Assembly: GCA_017403155.1 (NCBI GenBank)
Contig: JAFQOP010000014.1
Location: 15,270 to 79,269, forward strand
Source of the DNA: Clostridia bacterium
Lineage (GTDB): Bacteria > Bacillota > Clostridia > Oscillospirales > CAG-272
DNA length: 64,000 nucleotides
Direction: 5' to 3'
Position numbers and translations under genes: made by a program
Notes under the pieces: generated by a model
What the model saw: the letters and a program-made list of their open reading frames with translations, nothing else
What the model was told of the DNA's origin: nothing
Databases searched by the model: none
Shown: positions 2,654 through 60,939 of the stretch, one piece after another
Layout of the letters: each line of letters opens with the position of its first letter
Numbering within the stretch: position 1 is the first letter of the stretch

Positions 2654-2682
2654 TTGACTACCGGTACATAATGTGTTATAAT
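2654..2682 (+). promoter_or_regulatory. sigma-A promoter (extended -10) for the fakA operon
   Basis: TTGACT(2654)-N17-TATAAT(2677) with TG at 2674-2675. Confidence 0.75.
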
Positions 2683-2729: not shown

Positions 2730-4391
2730 ATGAACACTATGATTCTTGACGGAAAGACTCTTCGCCGTATGCTTATCGGTGCGGCATCACGGATTAAGGA
2801 TAATTGCGAGCATATAAATGAGCTTAACGTATTTCCCGTCCCCGACGGAGATACGGGAACAAATATGACGAAAACGGTCGAGGGCGGTATAGCCGAGCTT
2901 ACGGGGATTGATCCCGAGGCAGAGGTCTCCGTTTCCGACGTAACTTATAAATTCGCTCACGGCTCTCTTCTCGGTGCACGCGGAAATTCCGGCGTTATTC
3001 TTTCGCAGATATTTGCAGGAATAGAGGAGGAGCTTGTTAAATGCGAGGTCGCTACCGTTATGGACTTCGTAAGAGCATACAGAAACGGAATAACCAAGGC
3101 ATACAACTCGGTTATGAACCCCACCGAGGGTACTATTCTCACGGTATTCAGAGAGGCGACCGAGTATGCTGCAGCAAAGGTCACCGAGGACTCAAGCATT
3201 GAGGATTTCCTCTCTATGCATATTGATGAGGCAAAGCGCTCCCTTGCGCGCACCAAGGATATTCTTCCTGTCCTCAAGGAGGCGGACGTCGTTGACAGCG
3301 GCGGAGCAGGCTACGTATCTATCGCTACGGGCATGTACGATGCCCTGACAGGCACCGAGAGCTTTGACGATTATGAATTCATCGAATCGAATTCCTCGCC
3401 CTCTGCAGTAAACTTTGATGCCTTTACCCGTGATTCTGTGCTCGAGTTCGGATATTGCACCGAGTTCTTTTTGAGGCTTCAGTCGTCCAAGGTCGACCCC
3501 GACAGCTTTGACGTCAGCGTAATAACCGATTTTCTTACCGAAATGGGCGGTGATAGCATCGTATGCTACAAGACCGATGACATCGTAAAGGTGCACGTTC
3601 ATACCGAAAACCCGGGTGAGGTGCTCACGAGAATGCGTACGTTTGGTGAGATGCTCACTATAAAGATAGAGAATATGTCTCTTCAGCACAACGAGAGCGA
3701 GGCTGCGCAGGATAAGCGAGAGCGCGTTGGAATGGCGGTGCTCGCAGTTGCGAGCGGAGAGGGAATGTGCGAGCTCTTTAAATCTATCGGTGCTGACGGT
3801 ATTGTCAGCGGCGGTCAGACCAATAACCCCTCTGCCGAGGAGTTCCTACGCGCCTTCGACGAGGTGAATGCGGATAAGATTCTCGTCCTCCCCAACAACA
3901 AGAATATTTTCTTAACCGCCAAGCAGGCGGCAGCTATGTACGAGGGCTCTGAGGTGTATATAATACCCACAAAGACCCTGATGCAGGGTTATGCAGCGCT
4001 CTCTGTGATAACTCCCGACCCCGATCAGCTTGACTCGATTATAAAGAGCGCAACCGACGCTGCGGAAAACGTAATAGGAGCCGAGATAACCTATGCTGTG
4101 CGCGACGCTGTCATAGGCGGAGCGAGTGTAAAAAAGGATCAATTCATGGCTATCAGCGGCGGAGCAATTAAAGCAACCGCTGATACAGCGCAGGAAACAC
4201 TTATCAATATGCTTGCCTCAGTCGAGGACATTTCGGATTATGAAATTATAACCGTTTTTGTCGGCAAGGATATTGCAGAGGAGGAGCGCGCAGAGGTAAC
4301 CGAGCGAATCGAGGAGCTTTATCCCGACCATGAGGTAATCGTTTATGAGGGTGGACAGGAGGTATACAGCTACCTTCTCGCCATCGAATAA
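2730..4391 (+). CDS. fakA: DAK2-domain fatty acid kinase ATP-binding subunit FakA (YloV family)
   Basis: 553 aa; NELNVFPVPDGDTGTNM, GARGNSGVILSQ, EGTILTV, VVDSGG, YCTEF, HVHT, GGQTNNPS and LPNNKNI motifs. Confidence 0.93.
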   Translation: MNTMILDGKTLRRMLIGAASRIKDNCEHINELNVFPVPDGDTGTNMTKTVEGGIAELTGIDPEAEVSVSDVTYKFAHGSLLGARGNSGVILSQIFAGIEEELVKCEVATVMDFVRAYRNGITKAYNSVMNPTEGTILTVFREATEYAAAKVTEDSSIEDFLSMHIDEAKRSLARTKDILPVLKEADVVDSGGAGYVSIATGMYDALTGTESFDDYEFIESNSSPSAVNFDAFTRDSVLEFGYCTEFFLRLQSSKVDPDSFDVSVITDFLTEMGGDSIVCYKTDDIVKVHVHTENPGEVLTRMRTFGEMLTIKIENMSLQHNESEAAQDKRERVGMAVLAVASGEGMCELFKSIGADGIVSGGQTNNPSAEEFLRAFDEVNADKILVLPNNKNIFLTAKQAAAMYEGSEVYIIPTKTLMQGYAALSVITPDPDQLDSIIKSATDAAENVIGAEITYAVRDAVIGGASVKKDQFMAISGGAIKATADTAQETLINMLASVEDISDYEIITVFVGKDIAEEERAEVTERIEELYPDHEVIVYEGGQEVYSYLLAIE

Positions 4392-4416
4392 GACGTGTAA
4401 TAAGGAGAGGGAAGAT

Positions 4417-5391
4417 ATGAATAAATATTATACGGTGGTACTTGATACCGAGGGAAGCGACAAGGGTCCCGCCATGGTTGCGGAAGGAGCAGCCCTATCG
4501 CTTGAAAAATATCCCGAGCTTAAGCTCGTTCTCGTCGGTAATGAGTCAGCCCTGCGTGCCGAGATGGAAAAGCGCGGTGCCGATGCCGATAGACTTTCAT
4601 ACATCAATGCAACCGAGGTCATAACGAATTACGACAATCCCTCCGTAGCTTTGTTTACCAAGAGAGATTCCTCTCTCGTTAAGGCTCTCGAGGCGGTCAG
4701 CATCAATGACGAGTACGTCGGAATGGTGAATGCGGGCAGCACGGGCGCACTTTTAGCGGGTTCGCTTCGTTATCTTGCTACCCCCGATATGAAGCGCCCT
4801 GCGCTTGCTGCGGTCCTTCCTGCGGAGAGCGGTGGATTTACAGCGCTTGTTGACACTGGTGCCACGATAGATTGCACACCTGCCCAGCTTGTTCACTTTG
4901 CACATCTCGGTAAGGAATTTATAAAAACTCTTTACGGTGTCGAAAATCCCAGAATAGGTATCCTCTCCAACGGTAAGGAGGAAGGAAAGGGTAATAAGCT
5001 CGTCAAGGAGGCATATCAGCTCCTCAAGGCAGAGAGGGAACTAAACTTCGTCGGCAATATTGAGGGCACCAATGCGCTCTCGGGTGACTGCGACGTGCTT
5101 GTGTGCGACGGCTTCGCAGGCAACCAGATACTCAAATGCACCGAGGGAATTGCAAGAAGAATAATTAAGGATATTGTCGTTTTTTCCAAAAAGACGGGCG
5201 ACGAGAGTATCATGAGGGTGGTTGGTCATCTTATGAAGCTCTATGACTTTAATTCTCTCGGCGGCGGTGTTGTGCTCGGTGTCCGTAAGCCCGTAGTAAA
5301 GGCACACGGAGCCGCAAACGAGCAGTCGATAGTAAGCACCGTAGGCATAGTTCTCAACCTTGCGAAAAACAAAAAAATAGAATATAAGTAA
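4417..5391 (+). CDS. PlsX-like acyl-phosphate:ACP acyltransferase (divergent second copy)
   Basis: Start moved to ATG 4417 after AGGAGAGG. Motifs AGSTGA, RPALAAVLP, NGKEEGKG, FVGNIEG, CDGFAGN, KAHG. N-terminal DTEGSD replaces canonical DAMGGD. Confidence 0.88.
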   Translation: MNKYYTVVLDTEGSDKGPAMVAEGAALSLEKYPELKLVLVGNESALRAEMEKRGADADRLSYINATEVITNYDNPSVALFTKRDSSLVKALEAVSINDEYVGMVNAGSTGALLAGSLRYLATPDMKRPALAAVLPAESGGFTALVDTGATIDCTPAQLVHFAHLGKEFIKTLYGVENPRIGILSNGKEEGKGNKLVKEAYQLLKAERELNFVGNIEGTNALSGDCDVLVCDGFAGNQILKCTEGIARRIIKDIVVFSKKTGDESIMRVVGHLMKLYDFNSLGGGVVLGVRKPVVKAHGAANEQSIVSTVGIVLNLAKNKKIEYK

Positions 5392-5409: not shown

Positions 5410-6315
5410 ATGGAAAACAAAAGACTGGTAATGGCTATCTCGTCGGGATGTCTTGACTACGTGCCCGAGGAAATCAAGGATCTTGATATTGATATCATAA
5501 GACTCCACATTTCCTTTAAGGGCAAGGAATACCTTGAGGGCCTTGATCTCGATCCTATAAAGTTCTATGCAGAACTTGAGACTCTTAAGGATGCTAAGAA
5601 CAATCTCCCTAAGACAAGCATGCCGAGCGTTGCGGAGTTCTGCGAGCATTTTGATAAGGCTATCGAAAACGGCTTTAATGAAATTATTATCCTCTCTATA
5701 AGCACCGGTCTCAGCGGCACCTACGGTGTTGCCTGCCAGGTTGCAAAGACCTATGAGGATAGACTGAAGATAACTGTTGTTGACACCAAGACCAACTCCT
5801 TCAACGAGGGTATGCTTGCTGTAAAAGCGGCACAACTTGTTAAGCAGGGAATGTCCACCGAGGATATTCTCAAGGAAATAAACTGGATTATGAAAACGCA
5901 GGAGTTCTTCGGTGTAGACGGAAAGCTCGACTACCTTATCTACAACGGCAGACTAAAGGGTGGCAAGGCTCTTATCGGTAAGATGCTCAGCATCTGCCCC
6001 GTTGTAGGATTTAATAAGGACGGCACTCTCACCTCTTGGGAGACCGTAAGAACTCAGAAAAAGGCTCTTGCGCGTTGCTGCGAAATCCTCAAGGAGAAGA
6101 TTGGCGACAGAGCTCCCGAGGATTATCTGCTCTGGCACTGTCACACGGGTCCCTCGCTTCTCCCGATACTTGAGGAGCTTGAGGCAAAGGTAGGTATCAA
6201 GACGAACCATCCCCCCGTTATGATGTCTCCCGCCAGCGGCTCGCACAACGGTCCCTGGTTCGCAGGCTACGGTCTTATGTTTATCCGCCGTGAGGATGAA
6301 CCCCTCGAGGATTGA
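5410..6315 (+). CDS. DegV family fatty acid-binding protein (FakB)
   Basis: 301 aa; PKTSMPS, ISTGLSGTY, VVDTK, LDYLIYNGRL and SHNGP motifs. Confidence 0.93.
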   Translation: MENKRLVMAISSGCLDYVPEEIKDLDIDIIRLHISFKGKEYLEGLDLDPIKFYAELETLKDAKNNLPKTSMPSVAEFCEHFDKAIENGFNEIIILSISTGLSGTYGVACQVAKTYEDRLKITVVDTKTNSFNEGMLAVKAAQLVKQGMSTEDILKEINWIMKTQEFFGVDGKLDYLIYNGRLKGGKALIGKMLSICPVVGFNKDGTLTSWETVRTQKKALARCCEILKEKIGDRAPEDYLLWHCHTGPSLLPILEELEAKVGIKTNHPPVMMSPASGSHNGPWFAGYGLMFIRREDEPLED

Positions 6316-6332: not shown

Positions 6333-7457
6333 ATGATATCTGTCAGAGAAGTTAAGGGGTCTCGCGATATAAAAAAGTTCGTAGACTTTCCGATAAAGCT
6401 GTATAAAAGGTGCGAATATTTCGTTCCCTGCCTTTATTCTGACGAAAAAAAGCTTCTCTCCGGCAAGACAAGCTACGATGACGTTGCCGAGAGTGCCTTC
6501 TTCCTTGCGGAGAGGGATGGCGAGGTAGTAGGTCGAATCCAGGCGATAATCCAGCGCCAGCACAACGAGCTGACAGGAGAGCGCCGCGTGCGCTTCACTC
6601 GATTTGATGCCATAAACGACCCCGAGGTTTCCGCGGCGCTCTTCCGCGCGGTAGAGGACTTCGGTCGCTCTCGCGGGATGGATATCGTTTGCGGACCTCT
6701 CGGATATTCCGACCTTGATAGGGAGGGAATGCTTATCGAGGGCTTTGACCAGACGCAGACCTTTGAGGAGCAGTATAACTACGATTACTATCCTGCTCTT
6801 ACCGAGGCTTATGGCTTTGAGAAGGAGATTGACTGGCTCGAGTTCAGGCTTTTTGCGCCCGAAGATGGTGCAAATCCCTTCAAGAGAATTGCCGAGCGTG
6901 TCCTCGAGATGCAGAAGCTCCACGTTGCCGACGCCTCGATGCCTAAGCGCGAATACATAGAAAAGTACGGCGACGGTGCCTTTCACTGCATTGACGAGTG
7001 CTATAAGCACCTCTACGGAACGGTACCGATTACCGAGGGAATGAAGAAAGAGCTTATAGACCAGTTTATGCTGGTTCTTGACCCGAAGTATCTCGTTATT
7101 ATTTGCGATGAGAACGAGAGGGTCGTGTCCTTTGCTCTTTGCTTTCCTGCGATGGGTGAGGCTCTCCGTAAGAGCGGCGGCAAGCTTACCCCTGCGGCGC
7201 TCGTCCGTCTTTTCCGTGCTTTGAAAAAGCCGAGGGCTATCGACCTCGGACTTGTTGCCGTTTTACCCGAGTATCAAAACGCGGGTGTCAACGCGGTGTA
7301 TATGGATTATATTATCACACAGCTTACCGAGGGAGGAATCGAGTATTTTGAGACTAATCTCAACCTCGAGACCAACACCCAGGTAATGGCACAGTGGAAA
7401 TATCTGAAGGCGGTGAACCACAAGCGCCGTCGCGCCTATGTTAAGAAAATTGATTAA
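6333..7457 (+). CDS. GNAT-fold N-acyltransferase, YghO/bacterial ceramide synthase (bCerS)-like
   Basis: ATG 6333 after GGAGGACAGGA. Motifs KKFVDFP..LY....FVP.L..DE, GEVVGRI.AII, GPLGYSDLDREGMLIEGFD, YNYDYY, GFEKEIDW, LVAVLPEYQNAGV, LETN and KRRRAY. Confidence 0.7.
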   Translation: MISVREVKGSRDIKKFVDFPIKLYKRCEYFVPCLYSDEKKLLSGKTSYDDVAESAFFLAERDGEVVGRIQAIIQRQHNELTGERRVRFTRFDAINDPEVSAALFRAVEDFGRSRGMDIVCGPLGYSDLDREGMLIEGFDQTQTFEEQYNYDYYPALTEAYGFEKEIDWLEFRLFAPEDGANPFKRIAERVLEMQKLHVADASMPKREYIEKYGDGAFHCIDECYKHLYGTVPITEGMKKELIDQFMLVLDPKYLVIICDENERVVSFALCFPAMGEALRKSGGKLTPAALVRLFRALKKPRAIDLGLVAVLPEYQNAGVNAVYMDYIITQLTEGGIEYFETNLNLETNTQVMAQWKYLKAVNHKRRRAYVKKID

Positions 7458-7471
7458 GGAGAATAGGGAAA

Positions 7472-7693
7472 ATGGAAGAAAAGCTTAAATCAGTTATTGA
7501 AAGAGCGGTTCCCGGTGTTGACGTTTCGGGAATTACAAGAGATACCAAGCTTGTTGAGGAGCTTGGATTTGACTCGCTTGCCCTTATGATGATGGCAATG
7601 GGCATAGAGGATACCTTCGGTTATCGCTTCGAGGAATTTGTGCGCTTTGAGACCGTTGGCGAGGTTCTCGACTACCTCAAGGAAAGAATCTGA
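7472..7693 (+). CDS. Acyl carrier protein (operon-specific, non-canonical)
   Basis: 73 aa, acidic; L.EELGFDSL phosphopantetheine site and TVGEVLDYL helix; RBS AAGGAG. Confidence 0.9.
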   Translation: MEEKLKSVIERAVPGVDVSGITRDTKLVEELGFDSLALMMMAMGIEDTFGYRFEEFVRFETVGEVLDYLKERI

Positions 7694-7712
7694 CCCAGCA
7701 CAGACGGGATAT

Positions 7713-7752
7713 GGCGTAGATGGAGCCTTGCTCTGCTACGCCCTTTCTTTTT
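7713..7752 (+). terminator. Intrinsic terminator ending the fakA-ACP operon
   Basis: GGCGTAG...CTACGCC stem with inner GAGC/GCTC pairing, followed by TTTCTTTTT. Confidence 0.7.
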
Positions 7753-7756
7753 GGAA

Positions 7757-7786
7757 TTGACTTTTAATGTTGTCTTATGCTATAAT
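7757..7786 (+). promoter_or_regulatory. sigma-A promoter for bioY
   Basis: TTGACT-N18-TATAAT with an extended TG. Confidence 0.6.
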
Positions 7787-58556: not shown

Positions 58557-59902
58557 TGCAGGACAAACCTACAATTAGAGTTATCGGTGCGGGGCTCGCA
58601 GGCTGCGAGGCGGCATATCAGGCAGCTAGGCTTGGCGCCTTCGTTGAGCTTTACGAGATGAAGCCGCACAAATTTTCGCCCGCTCACCACAGCCCCACCT
58701 TTGCCGAGCTTGTGTGCTCCAATTCCTTGCGCTCCAACGTAACCTCCAATGCAGTAGGCCTCCTCAAGGAGGAGCTAAAAAGAATGGGCTCTTTGATTAT
58801 GGAGGCGGCATATGCTACCGAGGTTCCTGCGGGAAGCGCTCTGGCAGTAAACCGCGAGGATTTTTCGGCGTATATTACCGAAAGGATAAAATCAAATCCG
58901 AGCATCAGAGTCATAGAGGGCGAGGTAACCGATATTCCCGAGGACGGCATTACGGTCATCGCGACAGGACCGCTGACGAGCGATGCACTTGCGGAGCATA
59001 TATCCGCGCTGACAGGCGGTGCAGAGCTTCATTTCTTTGACGCGGCGGCACCTATTATAGATTTTTCGAGCGTTGATATGTCACGTGCCTTTTTTGCCTC
59101 GCGTTACGGCAAGGGCGAGCCTACGGACTATCTTAACTGTCCTATGACAGCAGAGGAGTACGATGTGTTTTACCGTGCACTTATTTCTGCAGAGGGTGCA
59201 CCTCTGAAGGATTTTGATAGGGAGAGCCAGGCAGAGCCCACCGTTTTTGAGGGATGTATGCCCGTTGAGGTTATGGCAAAGCGCGGATATGACACTCTTC
59301 GGTTTGGACCGATGAAGCCCGTTGGACTTCCGTGCCCCGATACGGGGGAGGACGCGTTTGCCACGGTGCAGCTTCGTCGCGAAAACAGAGAGGGCACGAT
59401 GTATAATATAGTCGGCTTCCAGACGCATCTTACCTTTCCCGAGCAAAGGCGTGTTTTTAGAATGATACCGGGTCTTGAAAACGCAGAGTTCCTCAGATAC
59501 GGTGTTATGCACAGAAACACATATCTCAATTCCCCGGGATTTTTGACAAGCATTTATTCGGTTGCAAATAACCCCAACCTGTTCTTCGCAGGACAGATGA
59601 CCGGTGTTGAGGGATATGTTGAGTCAACGTCCTCCGGCTTCGTTGCGGGAATAAACGCGGCACTGAGGGCGCTTGGCAGAGAGGCGGTTGTATTTCCTAG
59701 AGAATGCGAGATTGGTGCGCTTGCACACTACGTCAGTGAGGGCGGCGTCAGCTCCGACTTTCAGCCAATGAATGCTAACTTTGGAATAATTGCTCCGTTT
59801 GATAAGAAAATTAAAGGAGGAAAGAGAGTGAGAAACGAGGCATATGCAGAGCGCTCGCTTGAAATAATAGATACCCGTTTTTCATATCTTAAGAACTCAT
59901 GA
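58556..59902 (+). CDS. trmFO: Folate/FAD-dependent tRNA m5U54 methyltransferase
   Basis: GAGLAGCEAA, ELVCSNSL, FEGCMP, VGFQT and AGQMTGVEGYVES. Confidence 0.96.
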   Translation: MQDKPTIRVIGAGLAGCEAAYQAARLGAFVELYEMKPHKFSPAHHSPTFAELVCSNSLRSNVTSNAVGLLKEELKRMGSLIMEAAYATEVPAGSALAVNREDFSAYITERIKSNPSIRVIEGEVTDIPEDGITVIATGPLTSDALAEHISALTGGAELHFFDAAAPIIDFSSVDMSRAFFASRYGKGEPTDYLNCPMTAEEYDVFYRALISAEGAPLKDFDRESQAEPTVFEGCMPVEVMAKRGYDTLRFGPMKPVGLPCPDTGEDAFATVQLRRENREGTMYNIVGFQTHLTFPEQRRVFRMIPGLENAEFLRYGVMHRNTYLNSPGFLTSIYSVANNPNLFFAGQMTGVEGYVESTSSGFVAGINAALRALGREAVVFPRECEIGALAHYVSEGGVSSDFQPMNANFGIIAPFDKKIKGGKRVRNEAYAERSLEIIDTRFSYLKNS

Positions 59903-60939
59903 GAATAATAGTTGACGTAATGAGTGGCGACAACGCGCCGCTTGAGATAATAAAGGGTGCCGTTCTCGCAGCAGAGGAGTATGAGGCAACCATCGTTATG
60001 GTCGGAGACGAGAACGTTATATCCGACATTTGCGTAAAAAATGATATAAAGCTTCCCGAGAATACAGAAATTGTAAACGCCGCCTCTGTAATCAGCATGG
60101 AGGATAAGCCCATGTCCGTTGTTCGTGACAAAAAGGATTCCTCGATGAGCGTAGGACTCCGTATGCTGGCAAACGGCGAGGGCGACGCCTTTGTAAGCGC
60201 GGGTAATACGGGTGCACTAGTAACGGGTGCGACTCTCATTGTGCGCCGTATCGTGGGTATAAACCGTCCTGCGATAGCCTCGGTGCTTCCCCTTGCCAAT
60301 CCCGTCCTTCTTATGGACTCGGGCGCCAACCTTACCGTAACGTCGGACAACATCGTCCAGTTTGCGTTTATGGGTGCTAAGTATATGGAAAAGATATACG
60401 GCATAGACCGTCCGAGAGTCGGTCAGCTTAATAACGGTACAGAGTATAATAAGGGAAACGAGCTTCAGGTTGAGTCATATCAGACTCTATCCGAGAGCGG
60501 ACTGAACTTTGTCGGCAACGTTGAATCCAAGGCTGTTCCGTTCGGTGTGTGCGACGTTCTTGTTTGCGACGGATACACGGGTAACATATTCTTAAAGAGC
60601 GTTGAGGGCATGGGAAAGTTCATGATGGATATTCTCAAGGACGTTCTTTATACCAACATAGCAACGCAGGTATCCGCCCTTACCATGAAGAGCAAGCTGC
60701 GCGATATCAAGCATAGATTCGATTCCTCCGAGCACGGCGGCGCGCCTATCCTCGGTGTAACAAAGCCTGTAATAAAGGCGCACGGCTCGTCTGATGCCAA
60801 CGCAATTAAAAATGCAATCAGGCAGGCCATTCACTTCGTTGATTCGGGTATCAACAAGGATATTATCAGCTTTGCGGCAGATTACGATGAGAAGAAGCTG
60901 CTCGCAGATGCTGAAAAAATGTACGGAACAAGAGTGTAA
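59899..60939 (+). CDS. plsX: Phosphate acyltransferase PlsX (housekeeping copy)
   Basis: VDVMSGDNAP, SAGNTGA, RPAIA, DSGAN, DGYTGN and KAHGSS; canonical plsX-rnc-smc context. Confidence 0.95.
   Translation: MRIIVDVMSGDNAPLEIIKGAVLAAEEYEATIVMVGDENVISDICVKNDIKLPENTEIVNAASVISMEDKPMSVVRDKKDSSMSVGLRMLANGEGDAFVSAGNTGALVTGATLIVRRIVGINRPAIASVLPLANPVLLMDSGANLTVTSDNIVQFAFMGAKYMEKIYGIDRPRVGQLNNGTEYNKGNELQVESYQTLSESGLNFVGNVESKAVPFGVCDVLVCDGYTGNIFLKSVEGMGKFMMDILKDVLYTNIATQVSALTMKSKLRDIKHRFDSSEHGGAPILGVTKPVIKAHGSSDANAIKNAIRQAIHFVDSGINKDIISFAADYDEKKLLADAEKMYGTRV

Follow-up and report, generated by a model that had tools for sequence, protein, structure and literature searches.

What does an enzyme resembling bacterial ceramide synthases do in a Clostridia genome in which no serine palmitoyltransferase (SPT) gene was found? 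The question is raised by the fourth of five genes in an operon on a 64,000-nucleotide stretch of contig JAFQOP010000014.1 (assembly GCA_017403155.1), referred to here as the window. The most informative feature of the gene, and one missing from the initial annotation of this DNA, was its context, fakA-plsX-degV-GNAT-acyl carrier protein (ACP). Our preferred reading, to which we give a probability of roughly 0.6, is that an active N-acyltransferase of the bCerS/YghO family was recruited into a self-contained accessory pathway that converts scavenged fatty acids into an amide-linked (N-acyl) lipid. Family membership, the modelled fold, the structure of the operon and its nature as an accessory module were established directly, as was the failure to find SPT and type II fatty acid synthesis (FASII) genes; we infer catalysis, use of the operon's own ACP (ACP') and the product. 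A private amide-lipid pathway was proposed because the operon joins a full gene set for conversion of fatty acid to acyl-ACP with an enzyme whose tested relatives N-acylate amines.

The open reading frame is real, and runs on the plus strand from an ATG at 6333 to a stop codon at 7455-7457, with a product of 374 residues. A longer reading from a TTG at 6312 is possible; 6333 is the likely start because GGAGGA sits 8 nucleotides 5' of this ATG and homologues of 372-378 residues align with the window protein from residue 1. All six motifs on which the initial annotation had based its assignment to the YghO/bCerS proteins were present in the translation (FVDFPIKLYKRCEYFVPCLYSDE, GRIQAII, GPLGYSDLDREGMLIEGFD, YNYDYY, GFEKEIDW and VLPEYQNAGV), although the gap between LY and VP in the first spans six residues and not the four given. 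BLASTP comparison with YghO of E. coli K-12 gave an end-to-end alignment of 377 columns with 28% identity (E 1e-39), and this significant full-length match, with which both tree placement and fold agree, confirmed the assignment. Identity to Bacteroidota family members was 36-42%. The GNATs encoded in spt-cerS-cerR operons of Saprospiraceae and Chitinophagaceae were 36-37% identical to the window protein (37%, E 2.6e-87, for Saprospiraceae locus L088), and a Sphingomonadales GNAT (L050) was 26% identical (E 6.5e-29). At least 5700 matches at E<=1e-3 were obtained in a 90%-identity protein collection (8000 candidates scored); of the representatives of 50%-identity clusters, 4492 matched at E<=1e-3, 445 of them at E<=1e-30. 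Judged from sequence, the window protein is a full-length member of the bCerS/YghO acyltransferase family.

General databases returned little beyond the fold. A generic GNAT domain (residues 243-341, E 4e-7) was the sole Pfam match, through models PF00583, PF13508 and PF13527 only; the NCBIfam search with the window protein gave no family model, the PDB sequence search no related solved structure (one match was at chance level) and the ESM Atlas search nothing beyond generic GNAT clusters. The few names carried by close relatives were 'hypothetical protein' or 'GNAT superfamily N-acetyltransferase'. An AlphaFold2 model built on a 90-sequence alignment had a mean pLDDT of 94.7, a pTM of 0.91 and two GNAT-like halves, and its top Foldseek matches in the PDB were tandem GNATs (2wpw, 7q3a and 5kf1; TM 0.54-0.61, 10-12% identity). 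The window protein, as modelled, has a tandem GNAT fold.

Relatives were collected by scanning one genome per species with a six-sequence alignment headed by YghO, and of 590 confirmed relatives the loci of the best 80, which span many phyla, were probed by local BLAST with E. coli Kbl, followed by Pfam and NCBIfam searches of selected loci. In many of these best 80 loci an alpha-oxoamine synthase gene adjoined or lay near the GNAT gene. Locus L050, from a Sphingomonadales metagenome-assembled genome (MAG), has the order AMP-binding protein, epimerase-type reductase, ACP, SPT, two LptF/G proteins and GNAT, with its SPT above the NF047599 cut-off, and a gene set of the same type adjoins yghO in an Escherichia other than K-12 (L038). 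Compact SPT-GNAT-reductase operons were found in Saprospiraceae (L088) and Chitinophagaceae (L110), and the L088 SPT passes the NF047600 equivalog cut-off. The excerpted text of PMC11324152 gives the Caulobacter cluster CC_1165 to CC_1154 as aasR, cerR, acpR, spt ... cerS, and reports that CC_1154 is needed for dihydroceramide. The B. fragilis gene, found through homology to Caulobacter CCNA_01212, is reported in the excerpts of 10.1101/2023.05.23.541633 to have the deletion phenotype of a ceramide synthase, with build-up of 3-ketosphinganine in the cerS knockout. One Bacteroidales genus carried exactly one family member in 38 of 41 genomes, again 36-42% identical to the window protein, and the link to the characterised bCerS proteins was drawn through synteny together with this single-copy presence. 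The family assignment is sound because of the SPT-linked synteny, the behaviour of the B. fragilis homologue and the single-copy Bacteroidales members.

Other arrangements within the family were also observed. An IS5 element abuts yghO in E. coli K-12; in other Escherichia, Citrobacter, Pantoea and others, yghO adjoins AMP-binding, epimerase-type reductase, ACP, SPT-like and LptF/G genes, a ceramide layout of the Caulobacter type. Four Desulfuromonadales/Geobacter loci (L070, L071, L078 and L082) each hold two bCerS-family genes about 1 kb apart, one directly 3' of an SPT-like gene, with the two copies in different subclades of clade I (described below). In a Bacteroidales MAG (L080, 5617-11892), two tandem bCerS-family genes come after an SPT-like gene, and further 3' lie genes for an aminotransferase, for a CDP-alcohol phosphatidyltransferase and for a nucleotidyltransferase; the set is a possible head-group operon for sphingolipids in which the acyltransferase is duplicated.

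Phylogeny was assessed with quick IQ-TREE searches (LG+G4), which gave unrooted trees; midpoint rooting was used for drawing only. The first tree had 94 rows, comprising 78 GNATs from the best-80 loci with at least 85% query coverage, 15 from relatives and the window protein; near-identical Escherichia loci and fragments were left out. The second had 116 rows after 27 Clostridia from a class-wide sample of 399 genomes were added and five near-duplicates from enterics, along with a partial sequence, were taken out. The first tree resolved two deep clades (SH-aLRT 100 for each). Clade I held YghO, Sphingomonadales and other SPT-linked genes, with an alpha-oxoamine synthase adjacent or nearby in 29 of 42 rows, and clade II held Bacteroidales, Ignavibacteria, Anaerolineae, SPT-adjacent Saprospiraceae and all Clostridia. 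The window protein lies inside clade II, beside Bacteroidales and the SPT-adjacent Saprospiraceae. In the second tree it fell in a 13-row Clostridia-only clade (SH-aLRT 100), hereafter the Fak-linked clade, which is sister to the other 66 rows of clade II (SH-aLRT 96); further Clostridia clades are dispersed among those 66 rows. Twenty-five positions conserved in all three groups (clade I, the Fak-linked clade and the remainder of clade II) are kept in the Fak-linked consensus, and at one site, position 110, the window protein has F where the consensus has W. Six clade-specific switches were found in the Fak-linked clade, at positions 125, 133, 146, 221, 245 and 300. At position 221, N stands in 100% of clade I rows and in 85% of clade II rows outside the Fak-linked clade, whereas 92% of rows in the Fak-linked clade have D.

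A family member was present in 68 of the 399 Clostridia genomes and in 38 of 219 genera. The suggestion of a horizontal acquisition, taken as an isolated or recent event, is supported neither by this breadth nor by best identities of 42% in Bacteroidetes and 28% in Proteobacteria. Recent transfer was rejected on two grounds: outside Clostridia no close relative was found, and base composition showed no clear anomaly; G+C in the operon ranges from 0.46 to 0.53 and is not clearly distinct from flanking DNA. The other suggestion of the initial annotation, an uncharacterised branch possibly with a different amine acceptor, fits the distinct Clostridia-only clade and the lack of SPT in its class-sample genomes. 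Its description of the organism as a Gram-positive spore former is plausible, since those close homologues that carry names come from Clostridia, Ruminococcaceae or Oscillospiraceae MAGs and a Spo0A gene is present.

The five genes of the operon are closely spaced and co-directional, with a strong promoter-like site ahead of them and a terminator-like hairpin behind. The Pfam matches of fakA', plsX' and degV/fakB' lie well beyond the cut-offs of their models. FakA' exceeds the TIGR03599 (YloV) cut-off (540.5 bits against 396.1) and the DegV/FakB' protein that of TIGR00762 (217.8 against 99.7); against the S. aureus-type FakA and FakB1 equivalogs the operon genes fall below the cut-offs. The homology of plsX' starts near residue 30. 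ACP' begins 15 nucleotides past the GNAT stop with AAGGAG 5' of its ATG, and scores below all NCBIfam AcpP cut-offs (36.5 against 70.45 for TIGR00517). RNA folding of 7690-7765 gave -23.8 kcal/mol, with a z of -3.0 against shuffles, and a separate promoter-like site at 7757-7786 precedes bioY, the gene that comes next. Prediction of a GNAT-ACP' complex, in runs with at least 95% contact agreement and a partner pLDDT of at least 84, scored 0.42 against 0.17 for the best control and lent weak support to an interaction; the mark used for such complexes was reached by 116 of 157 solved complexes and by 2 of 215 mismatched pairs.

Table 1 Features of the accessory operon and the housekeeping plsX gene in the window
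Feature	Positions	Strand	Evidence
Promoter-like site, TTGACT, 17 nt spacer, TATAAT with TG	2654..2682	+	Consensus scan, 11/12 matches; pattern match only
fakA', accessory fatty acid kinase catalytic subunit, 553 aa	2730..4391	+	Pfam Dak2, FakA-like_M, FakA-like_C
plsX', accessory acyl-ACP:phosphate transacylase, start uncertain	4345..5391	+	PF02504, 245.6 bits
degV/fakB', accessory fatty-acid-binding subunit, 301 aa	5410..6315	+	Pfam DegV, E 3.6e-59
bCerS/YghO-family tandem-GNAT N-acyltransferase (putative), 374 aa	6333..7457	+	Family homology, AlphaFold2 model, tree, conserved residues
ACP', module-specific acyl carrier protein, 73 aa	7472..7693	+	Pfam PP-binding, E 3.9e-8; conserved LGFDSL serine motif
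Terminator-like hairpin then T-rich run, operon end	7713..7752	+	RNA fold of 7690-7765
Housekeeping plsX, comparison copy outside the module	59899..60939	+	PF02504, 327.3 bits

The operon is a second, accessory copy of the machinery for activation of exogenous fatty acids. Another fakA, 43% identical to fakA', lies on contig C1 with its own degV, whose product is 28% identical to the operon DegV, and the housekeeping plsX, 36% identical to plsX', is flanked by trmFO (GIDA) and rnc. Five members of the genus that lack the GNAT (93-99% complete) have one PlsX each, of the housekeeping type and 32-36% identical to the operon copy, and three GNAT-bearing genomes of the genus (93-99% complete) have two each. 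Within the genus, ACP' orthologues (46-63% identity) were found only in G003, G005, G007 and G023, the carriers of a 61-62% identical GNAT orthologue, which in G005 is split across two contig ends; the other ACP is 58-71% identical across most of the genus. In a large protein collection, at least 12 ACP' clusters agree with clusters of the GNAT orthologue in the length of their longest contig, which suggests that they lie on the same contigs. The identification of ACP' as the housekeeping AcpP, from plsX-acpP synteny, was rejected for the genus, in which a different ACP is conserved and ACP' stands 3' of the GNAT gene; it may still apply to families with the ACP gene 3' of plsX. The gap between the housekeeping plsX and rnc is 18 nucleotides and holds no ACP gene, so that the acpP usual at that position is missing; the genus-wide ACP stands alone elsewhere on the operon's contig (C14:239599-239823).

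Conservation of the module was followed in loci whose genes were called by a codon-usage caller trained on the source genome. The order fakA-plsX-degV-GNAT-ACP was kept in all three full-length 61-62% GNAT orthologues of the genus. Members with 47-54% identity from other Clostridia families had the order fakA-(degV)-GNAT-plsX-(ACP), and two further clade members had GNAT-fakA-degV or GNAT-degV. At least one Fak gene adjoined the GNAT gene in 11 of the 13 clade rows, and the Fak/PlsX/ACP link spans at least six Clostridia families (by software labels) with the gene order rearranged. Paralogues outside the clade (35-44% identity) lie in unrelated contexts. Two sets of paralogue loci were observed in the genus (L025-L028 and L029/L032/L033): one is divergent from an unknown 450-500-residue protein with a MacB-type ATP-binding cassette (ABC) transporter, and the other has a DUF6320 protein on one side and a GtrA-like protein on the opposite side.

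The source genome (1.5 Mb, 21 contigs, 87% complete) was searched for the partners that known ceramide synthases have. No SPT was found: neither E. coli Kbl nor any of three SPT-like queries gave a match, and all four of its PF00155 genes encode ordinary aminotransferases. The Kbl query likewise found no alpha-oxoamine synthase in G003, G007 (93% complete) or G023, the lone G023 match (E 3.6e-4) being below family strength. At E<=1e-30 an alpha-oxoamine synthase was present in 128 of the 399 Clostridia genomes and in none of the nine class-sample genomes of the Fak-linked clade (the source genome and eight of 95-100% completeness). Three CerR-like queries returned one weak generic match (24% over 179 residues, E 2e-5). 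No ketoacyl synthase (KAS) or polyketide synthase (PKS) gene was found in the source genome, and a ketoacyl synthase was found in one of 24 other members of the genus. The genus therefore appears dependent on external fatty acids and looks like a fatty-acid auxotroph. The operon stretch was found mainly in animal gut metagenomes; besides the possible source run and another run of its study, three runs from three other studies contained 38-56% of its sampled words.

From this gene content a pathway can be proposed. FakB' would bind a free fatty acid from the gut, FakA' would phosphorylate it to the acyl-phosphate, and PlsX' would shift the acyl group onto the dedicated carrier ACP'. With acyl-ACP' as donor, the tandem GNAT would then acylate an acceptor at its amino group, and an N-acyl lipid would result. 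The acceptor would come from outside the operon; candidates are sphingoid bases taken up from the surroundings and different amines such as amino acids, lipid head groups or other long-chain amines.

Several observations weigh against this pathway. The acyl donor of characterised bCerS is reportedly acyl-CoA and not acyl-ACP. PlsX' scores slightly below the TIGR00182 cut-off (239.5 against 243.4). No phosphopantetheinyl transferase (PF01648) was found in the source genome, yet 33 of 41 relatives were positive. Complex scores of 0.60 or less were obtained for just 18 of the 157 solved complexes and for both mismatched pairs that passed. In two of the 13 clade members (L152 and L153), the surrounding 7 kb or so hold no Fak gene. 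In the other families the ACP gene comes after plsX, the usual Firmicutes order, and may therefore serve PlsX rather than the GNAT. Finally, genome G027, whose sole family member belongs to the Fak-linked clade, has an SPT-like/KdsR-like operon, with the SPT-like gene on another contig, and given G027 the acceptor of the clade may simply still be a sphingoid base. As separate observations, G007 also lacks a PF01648 match, both it and the source genome encode ACPs, and the neighbours of the L152 and L153 GNAT genes gave no clue to the acceptor.

That last point leads to a specific form of the proposed pathway, which does not contradict it. The enzyme might N-acylate sphingoid bases from the gut (sphinganine, 3-ketosphinganine or sphingosine) with scavenged fatty acids delivered by FakA', FakB', PlsX' and ACP', in which case abundant fatty-acid-auxotrophic gut Clostridia would salvage ceramides from bases of diet, host or Bacteroidota origin; we regard this as a tentative proposal, somewhat less likely than not. 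Sphingoid-base N-acylation is the family's only tested function in the excerpts of 10.1101/2023.05.23.541633 and PMC11324152, and the residues conserved family-wide are retained. The co-occurrence in G027 of an SPT-like/KdsR-like operon and a Fak-linked clade member suggests that the ancestral acceptor was a sphingoid base. The organism appears to be a lipid scavenger and comes from animal gut metagenomes; bacterial sphingolipid salvage through CerS was raised as a possibility in the excerpted PMC11324152, and gut communities were reported to put labelled linoleic acid into ceramides, with SPT detected only in E. coli and B. thetaiotaomicron (10.1101/2025.09.11.675017, as excerpted). Against such salvage, the operon holds no sphingolipid uptake system or head-group enzyme, and the Fak-linked clade is marked by the N-to-D switch at position 221 and five other switches. 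Moreover, the excerpts of PMC7910519 report for mice that 99% of labelled cells were Bacteroides and that the cells without sphinganine-alkyne uptake belonged to Firmicutes, Tenericutes and Deferribacteres.

A function apart from lipids, such as the acetylation or acylation of small molecules, proteins or cell-wall components, with the Fak neighbourhood of no functional meaning, is improbable. Such a function would accord with a Pfam match limited to the generic GNAT domain, with a list of best Foldseek matches (TM 0.5-0.6) that holds clavulanate-pathway 2wpw, MAB_4324 and acetyltransferases such as Clostridium glucosamine N-acetyltransferase, MshD and Eis, with the non-lipid contexts of related-genome paralogues (MacB-type ABC transporter, GtrA, rimI/tsaD) and with the two clade members that have no Fak neighbour. 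The link to Fak, PlsX and ACP genes, however, holds across those six or more families despite the rearrangement of gene order, the module with its own PlsX and ACP co-occurs or co-vanishes with the GNAT, and the tested relatives are long-chain N-acyltransferases in the excerpted accounts (PMC11324152; 10.1101/2023.05.23.541633). De novo ceramide synthesis in the source genome, with the SPT gene in the unassembled 13%, is very unlikely: the incompleteness of the assembly, the SPT-like gene of the related G027 and the SPT-like genes of 41 of the 68 GNAT-bearing Clostridia genomes in the sample would allow it, but no alpha-oxoamine synthase was found in the source genome, in G003, G007 and G023 (Kbl query) or in the eight other, nearly complete clade genomes, and there is no KAS or PKS gene as an alternative route.

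The wider class was examined for SPT-like genes. A complete Clostridia genome (G320) carries one that is 56% identical to a Saprospiraceae SPT and 40% to Kbl, with serine palmitoyltransferase as its best NCBIfam match (586.8 bits, cut-off 640). With this gene as query, a match of at least 51% identity was called SPT-like, a cut of our own below which the next best matches stood at 47% or lower. An SPT-like alpha-oxoamine synthase was observed in 55 of the 399 genomes; 41 had both an SPT-like gene and a family GNAT, 27 a family GNAT only, 14 an SPT-like gene only and 317 neither, and since these genomes are related to one another the values are given as counts, with no statistical test. The SPT-like genes are 52-56% identical to Bacteroidota SPT-like genes that lie beside bCerS-family genes. 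Of 14 loci examined (L158, from G320; L160, from G027; and L161-L172), 9 have a KdsR-like short-chain dehydrogenase/reductase (SDR) gene next to the SPT-like one, and the best NCBIfam match of the SDRs scanned (those of G320 and G027) was 3-ketodihydrosphingosine reductase, below cut-off. SPT-like, KdsR-like and bCerS-family genes together could possibly form a complete dihydroceramide gene set in Firmicutes. With 55 of 399 genomes SPT-like and 41 of these also carrying a family member, parts of the Firmicutes, although not the source genome, therefore have genes for ceramide synthesis, and the view of the initial annotation that Firmicutes are not established sphingolipid producers needs qualifying. 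A literature search found no paper on the Fak-GNAT operon or on ceramide genes of Clostridia, though the primary bCerS paper, with its supplements, may treat part of this.

Ceramides and other N-acyl lipids made by gut bacteria influence the immunity and metabolism of the host, and so far Bacteroidota are credited with almost all of their production. A ceramide-synthase-family enzyme on a private scavenging line suggests that Firmicutes either salvage sphingolipids or make an amide lipid of a new class. If salvage takes place, Firmicutes would be an overlooked source or sink of ceramides in the gut, and the enzyme, if the proposed route through ACP' is true, would be the first of the bCerS family shown to use acyl-ACP. 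The presence of SPT-like and KdsR-like genes with family members in about one-tenth of sampled Clostridia species suggests that the question of Firmicutes sphingolipids deserves a direct experimental answer, and the five-gene operon is compact enough for direct testing.

Compared with known systems, the window protein shares its family, length, tandem-GNAT architecture and core residues with bCerS/CerS of Caulobacter (CC_1154 = CCNA_01212) and B. fragilis (BF9343_4218). Unlike bCerS systems, its source genome had no SPT that could be found, and the GNAT gene lies inside a Fak/PlsX/ACP operon and belongs to a separate deep clade confined to Clostridia. Of the usual bCerS partners, no clear CerR was found in the source genome beyond the one weak generic match, and KdsR-like SDRs were not searched for there. 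The 26% identical Sphingomonadales member sits in the Caulobacter-type layout aasR-cerR-acpR-spt...lptF/G-cerS. YghO of E. coli aligns end to end but belongs to clade I, whereas the window protein belongs to clade II.

A different resemblance is to the FakA/FakB/PlsX system, which incorporates exogenous fatty acids in Gram-positive bacteria (PMC10146087, as excerpted). The three upstream genes of the operon belong to the same families, and the same logic from fatty acid through acyl-phosphate to acyl-ACP was assumed. In comparison with the housekeeping Fak/PlsX genes, the operon copy is divergent (fakA' and plsX' 36-43% identical) and has its own ACP, and it carries a putative N-acyltransferase in place of the PlsY/PlsC outlets. 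GNAT-fold enzymes that move a long acyl chain from ACP onto an amine have precedent in OlsB, the N-acyl amino acid synthases and the LuxI-type synthases. These have a single GNAT domain and not a tandem one, and no sequence relationship between them and the window protein was detected with Pfam. A parallel in design is the dedicated loading of a special ACP with fatty acid for a sphingolipid-pathway enzyme by AasR and AcpR of Caulobacter, as excerpted from PMC11324152. AasR is an adenylate-forming acyl-ACP synthetase that feeds SPT, whereas here FakA', FakB' and PlsX' would feed the N-acyltransferase. The two systems are parallel with different parts, and their homology is limited to the ACP fold.

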